64,000 nt of DNA. Source: Alphaproteobacteria bacterium. Lineage in GTDB: Bacteria > Pseudomonadota > Alphaproteobacteria > UBA828. Shown piece by piece: positions 47,993 to 60,548 of this stretch. The translations under genes and the position numbers were made by a program. The stretch covers positions 384,001 to 448,000 of the forward strand of contig CBDCRW010000005.1 of assembly GCA_965221125.1 (NCBI GenBank). The letters run 5' to 3'. Position 1 is the first letter of the stretch, and each line of letters begins with the position of its first letter. Below the pieces are notes generated by a model. That model saw only the letters and a list, made by a program, of their open reading frames with translations. It was not told where the DNA came from and ran no database searches.

Positions 47993-48131
47993 CCCGCATT
48001 TCTCACCAGGGTCACGGCCTGCGTCGCGTCCAGGCGTTCGATCCGCCAGGAGCGGGCCGAAAAGCGTATCGGGGAATACGGTTGAGGCCCGCGACGCCGC
48101 GGGCGGGCGCCTGGGCGCGACCCGAAGGGCG
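47990..48131 (+). repeat. Repeat family B MITE, left half only
   Basis: TA-GCCCGCATTTCTCACCAGGGTCACGGCC...CCCGAAGGGCG, nearly identical to 58075-58243 apart from an internal indel; starts at the AKR stop TAG; right TIR absent. Confidence 0.85.
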
Positions 48132-56924: not shown

Positions 56925-57127
56925 AGCGCGTCCGACTTTGACGGACGCGCTTGGCCGCGACAGCGGCCCGCCGCGAATGCGGCGCACATCGCGCGCCCCT
57001 GCGCGCGTGGCCGCGCGACGCGGAGGCGCTGGCCGTCGCGCCGATAGGCGCGCGCAAGCGCACGACGGCCAGCTGCCGTGAGCGATAAAGACTCAGAGCG
57101 TTTCCGTGCAAAACGGACACGCTCTAG
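56922..57127 (+). repeat. Repeat family A, longest form (about 205 bp)
   Basis: Begins at the dnaB stop TAA and ends GCTCTAG; contains all modules plus the branched insert shared with the 11366 copy. Confidence 0.9.
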
Positions 57128-57162
57128 CGGCGCGCTCAACGGCGCGGGCGCGCCGCGGGTCG

Positions 57163-57188
57163 TGACCGTGGCGAGAATTCCGGGCTAG
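57163..57188 (+). repeat. Repeat family B, orphan right TIR
   Basis: TGACCGTGGCGAGAATTCCGGGCTAG compared with TGACCGTGGTGAGAAATGCGGGTTAA at 58347-58372. Confidence 0.65.
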
Positions 57189-57251
57189 AGTCCGGCGCGC
57201 TCGGCGCCGAGTCGAGGATCGGCCCGGAGGCATCATCGACGGATACGCTGC

Positions 57252-58031
57252 GTGAAGAGCAATCCGCTGCAGGCGATCGGCCATGGCGTCCTGGCGCTGT
57301 TCGCGGCCATCGGGCGCCTCTCCCTCTTCGCGATGGAGGCGACCTCGCACTGCGCGCGGCCGCCGTTCTACCCGCGCCTCGTCGCCCGCCAGATGGTGGA
57401 GATCGGCTTCTACTCGCTGCCGGTGGTGGGGCTGACCGGCCTCTTCGCCGGCATGGTGCTGGCGCTGCAGAGCTATACGGGCTTCTCCCGCTTCTCGGCC
57501 GAGAGCACGATCCCCACCGTCGTCGTGCTCTCGATCACGCGCGAGCTGGGCCCGGTGCTGGCCGGCCTCATGGTCGCCGGCCGGGTCGGCGCCGCGATGG
57601 CGGCGGAGATCGGCACCATGCGGGTCACCGAGCAGATCGACGCGCTCACCACGCTGTCCACCAACCCGCACAAGTACCTGATCGTGCCCCGCCTCATCGG
57701 CGGCTTTCTCATGCTGCCGTTCCTGGTCCTCGTCACCGACATCATCGGCGTCGGCGGCGGCTATATCGTCAGCGTCTTCAAGCTCGGCTTCAACCCGGAC
57801 GCCTACATCAACAACACCCTCGAGTATCTGGAGGTCATGGACGTGGTCTCCGGCTTGGTGAAGGCCGCCGTCTTCGGCTACCTGATCGCGCTGATGGGCT
57901 GCTACCACGGCTTCTACTCCAAGGGCGGCGCCCAGGGGGTGGGCAAGGCCACCACCAACGCGGTCGTGACCGGCGCGATCCTGGTGCTGATCTTCAACTA
58001 CGTCATCACAGAGGCGTTCTTCGCCCAATGA
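57252..58031 (+). CDS. mlaE: MlaE family lipid ABC permease
   Basis: RELGPVLAGLMVAGRVGAAMAAEIGTMRVTEQIDAL, GAQGVGKATT.AVV. Confidence 0.93.
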   Translation: MKSNPLQAIGHGVLALFAAIGRLSLFAMEATSHCARPPFYPRLVARQMVEIGFYSLPVVGLTGLFAGMVLALQSYTGFSRFSAESTIPTVVVLSITRELGPVLAGLMVAGRVGAAMAAEIGTMRVTEQIDALTTLSTNPHKYLIVPRLIGGFLMLPFLVLVTDIIGVGGGYIVSVFKLGFNPDAYINNTLEYLEVMDVVSGLVKAAVFGYLIALMGCYHGFYSKGGAQGVGKATTNAVVTGAILVLIFNYVITEAFFAQ

Positions 58032-58076
58032 GCGCGCCTGCCAACGAGCGCGCCGGCGGCGGCGCCAACCGGCCTA

Positions 58077-58369
58077 ACCCGCAATTCTCACCAGGGTCAC
58101 GGCCTGCGTCGCGCCCAGGCGTTCGATCCGCAAGGAGCGGGCCGAAAAGCGTATCGGGGAATACGGTTGAGGCCCGCGACGTCGCGCGGGACGCGCGCGG
58201 AGCGCACGATGCGGGCGGGCGCCTGGGCGCGACCCGAAGGGCGACGCTGTCCGGCCGACAGTGTGCGTCACGGCTCTTGCCCGATGTCCCTGCATCGCGC
58301 TGCGCGCCGTTCCTACCCTGTCGGCCGGACAGCGCCGCGCAGACCATGACCGTGGTGAGAAATGCGGGT
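58077..58369 (+). mobile_element. Repeat family B MITE, complete (293 bp), inserted in the 5' end of mlaF
   Basis: About 23-bp imperfect TIRs ACCCGCAATTCTCACCAGGGTCA / TGACCGTGGTGAGAAATGCGGGT; TA on both sides (58075-76 and 58370-71); internal long stems; no transposase. Confidence 0.88.
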
Positions 58370-59138
58370 TAAGATCGCCCTTCGCGGCCTCAGCAAGACC
58401 TTCGCGGGCCAGGTCGTGCTCGACGGCCTCGACCTCGAGATCGGCACCGGGGAATCGGTGGTGGTCATCGGCTGCTCCGGCGTCGGCAAGTCGGTCATGC
58501 TGAAGTGCCTGCTCGGCCTGCTGCACCCCGATGCCGGCAACGTGACCATCGACGGCGAGGAGCTGGCCCGCGACCGCGCGGCGCGCGAGGCCGCCATGCG
58601 CAAGATCGGCATGCTGTTTCAGAACGCCGCGCTCTTCGACAGCCTGTCGGTGTGGGAGAACGTGGCCTTCGGGCTGATCCAGGCGCACGGCATGGCGCGC
58701 CGCGAGGCCCGGGGCATCGCCATCGAGACGCTGGCCCAGGTCGGCCTCGGCACGGATTCGGCCGATCTCTACCCGGCCGCGCTCTCCGGCGGCATGCGCA
58801 AGCGGGTGGGCCTCGCACGGGCCATCGCGACCCGGCCCGAGATCGTCCTCTTCGACGAGCCGACGACCGGGCTCGACCCCATCATGGCCGACGTGATCAA
58901 CGACCTCATCGTCGCCTGCACCCACGAGCTTGGCGCGACCGCGCTCACCATCACCCACGACATGCGGAGCGCGCGCAAGATCGCCGACCGCATCGCCATG
59001 ATCCACGAGGGCGCGATCATCTGGCAGGGGCCGGCCGGCGAGATCGACAGCAGCGGGAACGCGCACGTGGAGCAGTTCATCAACGGCCGGGCGGAAGGGC
59101 CGATCCGGTTGCCGGCGGCCGATGCCGCGCTCGGCTGA
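58362..59138 (+). CDS. mlaF: MlaF family ABC ATPase (present start lies in the MITE TIR; ancestral start probably 58028)
   Basis: GCSGVGKS, LFQNAALFDSL, LSGGMRKRVGLARA, FDEPTTGLDP, THD. Confidence 0.92.
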   Translation: MRVKIALRGLSKTFAGQVVLDGLDLEIGTGESVVVIGCSGVGKSVMLKCLLGLLHPDAGNVTIDGEELARDRAAREAAMRKIGMLFQNAALFDSLSVWENVAFGLIQAHGMARREARGIAIETLAQVGLGTDSADLYPAALSGGMRKRVGLARAIATRPEIVLFDEPTTGLDPIMADVINDLIVACTHELGATALTITHDMRSARKIADRIAMIHEGAIIWQGPAGEIDSSGNAHVEQFINGRAEGPIRLPAADAALG

Positions 59139-59162
59139 GCCGCCGGCAGGCTGAGGAAACCC

Positions 59163-60548
59163 GTGGCACGGGCGGAAAAGCGCTTCGTCTGCAGCGATTG
59201 CGGCGCTACGCGGTCGCGCTGGGCCGGCCGCTGCGACGCCTGCGGTGCCTGGAACAGCATCACGGAAGAAGCGCCGCGCACCGCGCCGCCGCGCGCCCTC
59301 GGCAAGGGCAAGGGCCGGGTCATCGACTTCCTGCCGCTGGACGGGCCGGGCGGCGTGCTCGCGCGCCGCCCCTGCGGCATCGGCGAGATCGACCGGGTCG
59401 TGGGCGGCGGCTTCGTGCCGGGCTCGGTCGTCCTGCTCGCGGGCGATCCCGGCATCGGCAAGTCCACCCTGCTGCTCCAGGCCGCGGCGGCGCTCGCCGG
59501 GCGCGGCGGGCGGATCGCCTACATCTCGGGCGAAGAGGGGCTGGAGCAGATCCGCATGCGCGCGGCCCGCCTCGGGCTCAGCAGTGCGCCGGTGGGGCTG
59601 GCCGCGGCCATCGACGTCCGCGACATCGCGACCAGCGTGGAGGACGAGACGCCGCCCGACATGGTGGTGATCGATTCCATCCAGACCATGTACCTCGACA
59701 CCCTCGATTCCGCGCCGGGCACGGTCGCCCAGGTGCGGGGCTCGGCGCAGGAGCTGATCCGCCTCGCCAAGCGCACCGGCACGGTGCTCGTGCTCGTGGG
59801 TCACGTCACCAAGGAGGGGCAGATCGCCGGCCCCCGCGTGCTCGAGCACATGGTCGACTGCGTGCTCTACTTCGAGGGTGAGCGCGGCCACCAGTTCCGC
59901 ATCGTGCGCGCCATCAAGAACCGCTTCGGGCCGACCGACGAGATCGGCGTCTTCGAGATGACCGACCGCGGCCTCGTGGAGATTCCCAATCCCTCCAGCC
60001 TGTTCGTCGACCCGGAGCGGGGGCCCGTCCCCGGCGCTGCGGTCTTCGCCGGCGTCGAGGGCTCGCGGCCGGTCCTGGTCGAGATCCAGGCCCTGGTGGC
60101 GCCGGGGCCGGCGGGCTCGCCGCGCCGCACCGTGGTGGGCTGGGATGCCGGCAGGCTCGCCATGGTCCTCGCCGTGCTGGAGGCCCGCGCCGGGCTCCGG
60201 CTCAGCGTCTGCGACGTCTACCTCAACGTGGCCGGCGGCTTGCGCATCACCGAGCCCGCCGCCGACCTCGCGGTCGCCGCCGCGCTGGCCTCGTCGGCGG
60301 CGAACCGGGCGCTCGACCACGGCGCCGTGATCTTCGGCGAGGTGGGACTCGCCGGCGAGGTGCGGGCGGTGAGCCAGGGCGAGGCCCGGCTCAAGGAGGC
60401 GGCGAAGCTCGGCTTCACCCACGCGCTGGCGCCTGTGCCGGACCGCGCCCAAGGCGGCGAAGCGGAAGGGCAGGGCATCGCTATCAGGCGGCTCACCCAC
60501 GTGCGCGACCTGGTGGCGCTCTTCCCCGCCGATGCGCCGCTCGGCTGA
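59163..60548 (+). CDS. radA: DNA repair protein RadA/Sms
   Basis: CxxC..CxxC zinc finger, GDPGIGKST, KNRFG, DVYLNVAGG. Confidence 0.95.
   Translation: MARAEKRFVCSDCGATRSRWAGRCDACGAWNSITEEAPRTAPPRALGKGKGRVIDFLPLDGPGGVLARRPCGIGEIDRVVGGGFVPGSVVLLAGDPGIGKSTLLLQAAAALAGRGGRIAYISGEEGLEQIRMRAARLGLSSAPVGLAAAIDVRDIATSVEDETPPDMVVIDSIQTMYLDTLDSAPGTVAQVRGSAQELIRLAKRTGTVLVLVGHVTKEGQIAGPRVLEHMVDCVLYFEGERGHQFRIVRAIKNRFGPTDEIGVFEMTDRGLVEIPNPSSLFVDPERGPVPGAAVFAGVEGSRPVLVEIQALVAPGPAGSPRRTVVGWDAGRLAMVLAVLEARAGLRLSVCDVYLNVAGGLRITEPAADLAVAAALASSAANRALDHGAVIFGEVGLAGEVRAVSQGEARLKEAAKLGFTHALAPVPDRAQGGEAEGQGIAIRRLTHVRDLVALFPADAPLG

Follow-up and report, generated by a model that had tools for sequence, protein, structure and literature searches.

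The element described in this work is a MITE (miniature inverted-repeat transposable element) that interrupts the 5' end of the gene mlaF in a 64,000-nucleotide stretch of an Alphaproteobacteria genome. The whole stretch is referred to as the window; it corresponds to G000:C5:384001-448000, where G000 is the genome under study, and coordinates given without a contig are window positions. The closest described systems are other prokaryotic MITEs, such as the Correia (CREE) elements of Neisseria, MITEAba12, ERIC, and BOX. Like the element in mlaF, they are small, non-coding, and multi-copy, they have terminal inverted repeats, a flanking duplication, and a strong hairpin, and they are found at gene boundaries where they are able to alter neighbouring genes. 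The element in mlaF has no sequence similarity to them. It is also unlike them in that the ATG of its end repeat repeatedly replaces the native start codons of interrupted housekeeping genes, and in that flanking stop codons end an open reading frame (ORF) that runs through the element, here termed the relay ORF, beside this ATG.

Repeats that carry start signals have been reported in other bacteria. Passages of one report (PMC3184786) describe the REP2 repeats of Neisseria and the inverted repeats (IR) of Borrelia as carriers of a promoter, a site for ribosome binding, and an ATG. Those repeats have a promoter and no terminal inverted repeats, whereas the element in mlaF has a Shine-Dalgarno (SD)-like site and an ATG and no promoter was found: a promoter and terminator scan of 57000-59300 gave 0 sigma-70-like promoter sites and nothing in the element. 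Moreover, the signal here lies inside a transposon end, and the element lands within a coding region. The Rickettsia palindromic elements (RPE) are tolerated inside protein-coding genes, and in-frame fusions of RPE, ERIC, and BOX are covered by reviews, according to the part of the source consulted (PMC10969869). RPE are translated in frame within the host protein, whereas here the gene restarts at the far end of the element and the element stays outside the product. In the passages concerned, start codons near the ends of MITEAba12 are said to be able to allow fusions (PMC6382973), and a 'hybrid start codon' that is partly transposon-derived has been annotated in Halobacterium (PMC7002104). 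In the literature found, start codons in end repeats are raised merely as a possibility. In full-text searches that covered few subscription journals, no account was found in which a MITE's end repeat takes over start codons again and again, or in which IS1380-derived MITEs do so.

The fourth system to be compared is the IS1380 family of insertion sequences (IS), which is treated as the outgroup of piggyBac and as its prokaryotic relative in the sections concerned of PMC10813416, where piggyBac is stated to target TTAA. The element in mlaF is similar to this group in the IS1380-family DDE transposase of its cognate autonomous elements and in its ends that begin with CCC. Duplications of 4 bp at TTAA-like sites (CTAG, TTAA, TTAG, and CTAA) flank sister and cognate IS copies. 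The best overall explanation of the locus is probably a MITE insertion in which the end repeat donates a new start codon to mlaF, with the relay ORF coupling upstream translation to it.

The interrupted mlaF gene and its empty site in relatives

The MITE comprises 291 bp (58078..58368), has IS1380-type ends, and encodes no transposase. It is inserted 50 nt after the native mlaF start codon, ATG 58028, which overlaps the TGA stop codon of mlaE (ATGA). The gene mlaE (57252..58031, + strand) is an ORF that encodes an MlaE-family ABC permease of 259 aa, which scored 245.9 bits against TIGR00056 (cut-off 212.2) and is the sole MlaE homologue detected in the genome. The stranded native 5' end of mlaF (58028..58077, + strand) consists of the ATG and 16 codons (MSAPANERAGGGANRP), including the left copy of the target-site duplication; in relatives this frame runs straight into KIALRGL. 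From the same ATG, the relay ORF of 114 aa (58028..58372, + strand) extends across the whole element to TAA 58370-72 and overlaps the new start region by 11 nt. It is the one long ORF of the element and had no protein family match. The gene mlaF as now encoded (58362..59138, + strand) is an ORF of 258 aa that begins with MRVKIALRGL and has the ABC ATPase domain from residue 5. An in-frame TGA (58356-58) lies two codons upstream of ATG 58362. Since the ATPase models align from residue 5 and this TGA closes the frame upstream, ATG 58362 is the only start that leaves the ATPase intact.

The ATPase gene follows mlaE with the ATGA overlap in all relatives. Its product scored 169.4 bits against NF008809, the curated equivalog of MlaF, which is below the cut-off of 441. 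As this cut-off is missed, the name mlaF rests on context and 'MlaF-like' is the safer label. The nearest other ABC ATPase of the genome (G000:C7:258952-259698) is 56% identical to the MlaF-like protein and has no adjoining MlaE-family permease.

A DNA search of 41 related genomes gave matches in 36, including 20/20 genomes of the same genus. In the closest relative, the two flanks of mlaF abut. The gene is uninterrupted in all 11 same-genus loci examined, where it is one continuous gene from the ATGA overlap. These loci read ATGA...AAC C(G/A)G CCC AAG ATC GCC, in which a variable tail of 16 codons leads into PKIALRGL. In contigs of two public sequencing runs that belong to other studies (X4 and X6), 58074 is joined to 58371, and a single C separates them. 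Contigs of a third run (X1) span both filled junctions with 0 differences, and this run may be the assembly's own source. None of the public sequencing runs had the whole 64-kb stretch. Comparison of these loci indicates that the MITE insertion in mlaF is specific to this lineage.

These results bear on several claims of the original prediction, which was made from the window sequence. The native ATG on the mlaE stop codon and the 114-aa frame that passes through the element without a stop to TAA 58370-72 were both found at their predicted positions. The empty site expected at the mlaF 5' end of relatives was found, and the continuous frame into KIALRGL that excision of the insert had been predicted to restore matches the 11/11 congener loci. 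The net addition of 295 bp and the frameshift also stood. The TA that had been placed at the empty site did not, as relatives have CCC AAG there, with no TA.

End-repeat start codons at other genes

The end-repeat ATG is the first in-frame start codon of three more genes in this genome, the native starts of which are stranded or frame-broken. At hisZ (G000:C4:912768-913035), all of the seven relatives read ATG ACG GA(A/C) (G/C)CC AAG ACA CCG; here ATGACGGACCT stands to the left of the element, beyond which the gene continues as MRARTPALL. At an ABC permease gene (G000:C4:832088-832383), the native ATG AC is split after base 5, and the empty site is present in the genome's own paralogue and in congener G015. 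At hdaA only a solo end remains here, and ten other relatives have native starts.

The survey was extended to a complete congener genome, G004, in which all 27 exact ATG-bearing ends were compared with the orthologues of the genome under study, which are empty at those positions. Seven of the 27 ends start genes with a stranded or frame-broken native start: tpiA, ispE, hdaA, and the genes for a signal-peptide protein, a membrane protein, a permease, and an hpnD-like synthase. The hdaA case of G004 is an independent event, as its site differs from that of hdaA in the genome under study. A further case (L190) is doubtful, and in two others native ATGs lie a few codons downstream. The genes tpiA, ispE, hdaA, and hisZ are essential or near-essential in other bacteria. 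No out-of-frame 5' interruption was recognised among the 11 full-length copies here or the 27 ends of G004 with heuristics based on ORFs and on GC content at third codon positions (GC3).

The end-repeat starts of the hpnD-like and permease genes are common to G004 and a second species, G014, and 17 and 14 other species, respectively, keep native starts. The hpnD junction is identical in both genomes, where it consists of a full MITE in G014 and a solo end in G004. Since these starts are common to G004 and G014 and the genes are intact, such starts have outlived a speciation event. The claim that an insertion can be near-silent through a donated start is thus backed by the three other genes of this genome (hisZ, the ABC permease gene, and hdaA), which a genome scan for in-frame end-repeat ATGs returned, by the seven genes of G004, and by the two starts common to two species. 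Judging from these comparisons, start donation very probably works and is more general than first supposed.

Comparison of the G004 locus (L206) with that of G014 (L207) also suggests how a solo scar forms. Such scars seemingly arise when the DNA is deleted between the end repeat's GGTGAG and a GGTGAG that happens to occur in the region of the native start (ATGGTGAG). In a deletion of this type, the element is lost and its ATG is kept.

Proposed translation from the end repeat and the rival readings

The right end of the element reads TGG-TGA-GAA-ATG-CGG-G and is followed by the duplicated TTAA, so that the outward-facing SD-like site and ATG 58362, in frame with mlaF, are present as had been predicted. 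The three frames at this end behave differently: the ATG frame has the upstream TGA, the next frame acquires TAA or TAG from the duplication, and only the third stays open. Native frames entering via xYT|ARx (Y, C or T; R, A or G) exit in one of the two closed frames unless the length of the element is 1 modulo 3, which is true for 1/11 copies here. The predicted duplex of GGTGA with the 3' end of 16S rRNA is -7.4 kcal/mol, compared with -7.9 for native mlaF, -7.8 for radA, and -3.3 for mlaE. In eight of the nine full-length cases, a relay ORF of 59-114 aa leads from the stranded native start across the element and ends between 12 nt ahead of the new ATG and 11 nt beyond it.

The following course of events is proposed, of which the sequences show the insertion, its family, the type of its partner transposase, the layout of the signals, and the recurrence at further genes. 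The MITE entered a YTAR-type site at mlaF codons 16/17 in this lineage only. The insertion added 295 bases and shifted the frame, so that the native ATG 58028 no longer yields MlaF. The right end repeat, with the duplication, supplies the SD-like GGTGA, an in-frame ATG, a TGA just upstream of it, and a TAA or TAG in the next frame, and its ATG is in frame with the downstream gene whenever the target phase is xYT|ARx. Ribosomes from the native ATG, which is coupled to mlaE by the ATGA overlap, would translate the relay ORF of 114 aa through the element and thereby melt a hairpin of roughly -200 kcal/mol that may otherwise bury the new ribosome-binding site. Termination at TAA 58370-72, 8 nt past the ATG, would then be followed by a restart or by the entry of a fresh ribosome on the exposed site. 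The predicted product is MlaF with MRV in place of the variable N-terminal tail of 16 residues and a Pro. We infer that translation starts at 58362 and that coupling helps.

The phase of the insertion was compared with chance. YTAR sites are rare, with 394 in about 2.2 Mb of confident coding DNA. The ATG-in-frame phase, xYT|ARx, is found at 173 of them (44%), and with such an expectation a single in-frame case means little. A result of 11/11 in-frame by chance would be about 1 in 10,000, for cases that were first found by seeking in-frame ORFs. A less biased count was made of sense-like ORFs that stay open for >=100 codons from the boundary and pass a heuristic filter on codon-position GC. The filtered frames 0:1:2 are 9:1:2 in this genome, where 2/9 are copies of one repeat, and 5:1:0 in distant phyla. 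In both data sets together, frame 0 exceeds frame 1 by 14 to 2 (one-sided binomial about 0.002). The open interior frame of the element had been given special significance in the original prediction, a claim that is not borne out by the finding that 40% of random 293-nt frames in the genome are open. The relay frame is open in 7/11 family copies wherever they are placed. The open interior is a property of the family, for which a role is plausible and no sign of selection is seen.

Several of these findings weigh against start donation at mlaF. The in-frame phase is not rare, an open relay frame is expected by chance at the rate just given, and the start-replacement cases were found via in-frame ORFs, the out-of-frame ones having been sought with the ORF and GC3 heuristics only. 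The unfiltered count of 125 ends in distant phyla has no excess of the ATG frame (17:19:6 open flanks), in which frame 1 is filled by antisense shadow ORFs. The predicted probability that the ribosome-binding site of the end repeat is unpaired is 0.12, compared with 0.39 at the native start. RNA run X15 covers only other copies of the element and is silent on the mlaF junctions. The insertion is confined to this genome and is maybe too recent for decay. Many bacteria can do without the Mla system, and a null allele could thus persist.

In a rival reading, the insertion killed mlaF, which would be a young pseudogene with an end-repeat ATG that is a coincidental part of a transposase-binding sequence. 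This reading, which we consider improbable, is favoured by the single genome with the insertion, by a ribosome-binding site that is buried in a hairpin of -201.6 kcal/mol, by the 44% chance of the in-frame phase, and by an end whose conservation across phyla evidently serves transposition rather than translation. Against it, three genes of G004 (tpiA, ispE, and hdaA), as well as hisZ and hdaA here, have no workable start other than the end-repeat ATG, two such starts outlived a speciation event, and MlaF partners the genome's only MlaE. The gene also has no excess of amino-acid changes: the ratio of nonsynonymous to synonymous substitution rates (dN/dS) of mlaF is 0.19-0.25 against four relatives, compared with 0.10-0.18 for mlaE, and mlaF has two singleton changes at otherwise invariant columns here, compared with 0-5 in eight relatives. 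Because the insertion may be young, dN/dS and the intact ORF are weakly informative.

It is also conceivable, though on balance unlikely, that ribosomes initiate independently at the end repeat's SD-like site to make MlaF from 58362 and that the relay ORF is irrelevant. The pairing with the anti-SD sequence is as good as at neighbouring genes, case L190 of G004 retains no native start upstream, the relay ORFs with which solo-end scars work are only 6-8 codons long, and an open frame arises by chance in 40% of windows. Coupling through the relay ORF is favoured over this reading by the 8/9 full-length cases in which a relay ORF ends within 12 nt of the ATG, and by the prediction that the site is paired unless the element is translated through. 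It is very improbable that part of the population regains function in its DNA or RNA, through precise excision or through removal or processing of the RNA. Such a restoration would draw on the near-perfect hairpin of the element and on the kinship of IS1380 with piggyBac (PMC10813416, in the part consulted); piggyBac-type elements can excise precisely. It is opposed by the persistence of elements at the same sites in two species, by the absence of any Rfam family or intron-like feature, and by the finding of no cognate transposase with matching ends in the 92%-complete assembly; in addition, no empty-site contig was seen in X1, though contigs drop rare variants. Nothing points to removal in the RNA or to a role in regulation, both of which the original prediction had raised.

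Insertions in coding regions are normally scored as knock-outs, whereas here a transposon end would provide a portable signal for starting translation. Genome annotation and pseudogene calling would wrongly report mlaF as broken, and tpiA, ispE, hdaA, and hisZ in relatives would likewise be called broken or given a wrong start. The family would offer an experiment, repeated in nature, on how translation is coupled and re-initiated across an RNA hairpin of great stability, and an example of how a selfish element can reduce its cost to the host. A wider proposal may be put forward tentatively, in which the ends of IS1380/piggyBac-like elements form a phylum-spanning translational 'pass-through' module (stop, SD, ATG, and stop, completed by the YTAR duplication). 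Such a module would let MITEs occupy the first codons of even essential genes. In GC-rich genomes, where YTAR barely exists outside gene boundaries, this property could let the family spread and continually rewrite N-termini and start signals.

The IS1380-type mobiliser, target sites, and copies of the family

The exact 17-mer end (GCCCGCAWTTCTCACCA) was found at no fewer than 110 loci, in genomes that carry the labels of many different phyla. Of the 130 end occurrences in the distant-phyla sample, 104 are preceded by TA, and the interiors are unrelated. One genome, G041, has seven end pairs 1,700 bp apart that enclose a 455-aa transposase of the IS1380 family (NF033539, 413.9 bits with a cut-off of 180; PF13701, DDE_Tnp_1_4, 503.2 bits). 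The MITE of G041, roughly 245 bp, has only its termini in common. Transposases 60-62% identical to that of G041 are present in the congeners G011, G006, G015, and G018. IS copies with both ends found in G011 and G006 are 1,646-1,648 bp and are bounded by CCCG(C/G)ATTTCTCACGAG; taken together with the G041 element (1,698 bp), the bounds of the autonomous IS are CCCG(C/G)ATTTCTCAC(G/C)AG. This assembly, 92% complete, yielded no autonomous IS with matching ends, and the pairs of end repeats in it enclosed no autonomous copy. The genome's own IS1380 is a different element of 1,613 bp with 11 near-identical copies (e.g. C7:652383-653995), which is 41% identical and has different ends.

On the evidence of these sequences, the mobiliser is an IS1380-family (piggyBac-related) transposase. 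An element flanked by the same ends had been sought by the original prediction, and it is present in congeners and in G041. The IS630/Tc1-type mobiliser that had been proposed there is not upheld, and derivation of the element from an IS630/Tc1-mariner transposon with a TA duplication is extremely improbable. The end sequence relevant to this question is CCCGCAWTTCTCACCA. A TA lies beside the 104/130 ends of the distant-phyla sample and on both sides in 5/11 own copies, and a 2-bp TA duplication fits the hdaA flanks of G004 better than a 4-bp one. A search of this genome with PF13358 (DDE_3) gave 0 matches, however, and every autonomous element found with these ends has an IS1380-family transposase. 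The sister IS1380 makes perfect 4-bp duplications at 11/11 copies, including CTAT, CTAC, and CACG, and one cognate IS copy lies between TTAG and TTAG.

Among the 11 copies of the genome's own IS1380, the duplications are CTAG (four), TTAA (two), and TTAG, CTAA, CTAT, CTAC, and CACG (one each). They are mostly YTAR, which is a piggyBac-like TTAA-type target choice in a bacterial IS. The 10 distinct cognate IS copies have CTAG on both sides in 7/10 and TTAG on both sides in one, so that the flanking 4-mers match in 8/10. At the mlaF copy, CTAA and TTAA match at 3/4 positions. The own MITE copies are unlike IS1380 and piggyBac in this respect, as a perfect 4-bp duplication is present in 0/11; the mlaF element is also unlike them in having no transposase. 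A G or C adjoins each terminus in 10/11 of the own MITE copies. A 2-bp TA duplication beside G...C termini fits some sites as well as a 4-bp duplication, and TA is the core of the 4-bp YTAR sites. By analogy with the IS1380 copies, the MITE duplication is probably 4 bp (YTAR with a TA core), with its left copy CTAA at 58074-77 and its right copy TTAA at 58369-72, the TAA of which stops the relay ORF. That the duplication is a plain TA and no more, as originally described, is not supported.

The third difference from IS1380 and piggyBac is that bases at filled MITE sites depart from the empty sites of relatives more than the flanks do. The empty and filled bases are CCAA and CTAA/TTAA at mlaF, CCAA and TTAG/CTAG at hisZ, and CCGA and CTAG/CTAA at the permease gene. 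At these three insertion points, 1-3 positions are changed relative to relatives, the flanks are conserved, and the two duplication copies differ. The changed bases may be accounted for by a TA duplication of 2 bp, with termini of the form G...C and preference for Y-TA-R, by ascertainment if insertion requires a site that is already YTAR, or by carry-over of donor flanks. Carry-over of this kind has reportedly been described for piggyBac at non-canonical sites.

About 17 of the 63 element ends in G000 abut a convergent gene whose stop codon is formed by the duplicated TA and the G beside the end repeat (TAG). As the stop codon is rebuilt as TAG, an insertion on a stop codon leaves the upstream gene intact too.

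The left terminal inverted repeat of the mlaF element (CCCGCAATTCTCACCA; 58078..58093, + strand) was located by repeat and motif analysis. The right one (TGGTGAGAAATGCGGG; 58353..58368, + strand) holds GGTGA (58354-58), TGA (58356-58), and ATG (58362-64). The ends are 16-17 nt, within inverted arms of 40 nt at 85% complementarity; internal arms pair over 24 nt at 92% and over 14 nt at 100%. The predicted RNA fold of -201.6 kcal/mol has z = -10.5, and that of the opposite strand is -202.8 kcal/mol with z = -11.8, which agrees with the highly structured interior that had been noted. An Rfam search of 57000-59000 gave no family, with two chance-level matches only (E 0.27 and 0.95), and no intron-like feature was found in the element.

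The original prediction had also described a family with partial copies in the window, which is consistent with the copies found. The end motif has 4 occurrences in the window, compared with 0.06 expected. One belongs to a truncated MITE copy, the left half of about 140 bp (47993..48131, + strand), identified by motif and copy search. A solo right end of a related element (TGGCGAGAATTCCGGG and CTAG; 57169..57188, + strand) lies 66 nt upstream of the mlaE GTG. The genome has 11 full-length copies of 263-348 bp that are 74-84% identical to the mlaF copy, in addition to dozens of fragments and solo ends, and the 20 congeners have hundreds of copies. The element thus has the features by which MITEs are recognised: small size, terminal inverted repeats, a flanking duplication, no transposase of its own, dispersed polymorphic copies, and an autonomous partner. 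A bacterial MITE family is thereby tied to IS1380/piggyBac-type transposition at TTAA-like sites, and the common 17-nt end across phyla is a handle for finding such elements anywhere.

The exact 17-nt end GCCCGCATTTCTCACCA (loci L013-L122) occurs in Acidobacteriota, Planctomycetota, Gammaproteobacteria, Verrucomicrobiota, Chloroflexi, Gemmatimonadetes, Nitrospirota, and others. In distant phyla, some ORFs that flank 17-nt ends seem to begin at the end-repeat ATG as well. By their N-terminal motifs, these candidates resemble Dam, ThyX, NUDIX, and permease genes.

At the CTAG that lies 66 nt upstream of the mlaE GTG, an element end is present here and in four of the eight relatives read (L003, L007, L010, and L012), and the site is empty (CTAG or CTAC) in the other four. 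Either the site is a hot spot, or the insertion is old and was lost later in some relatives. The TAG of the solo end at 57169-57188 is the in-frame stop that bounds the mlaE ORF upstream. Mini-versions of about 40-55 bp, which comprise hardly more than two end repeats back to back, are found at G000:C1:63577-63631 and C5:595543-595582, and one mini-version directly adjoins a full-length copy. A hairpin repeat of 29 bp (GAGCGTTTCCG...CGGAAACGCTC) lies at 57095-57123 in the window and has 69 matches genome-wide on both strands, usually followed by TAG or TAA. One copy flanks an IS1380 insertion on its left (L128), and another is found immediately upstream of glpK. This repeat may be a REP-like element (REP, repetitive extragenic palindrome) that offers YTAR targets.

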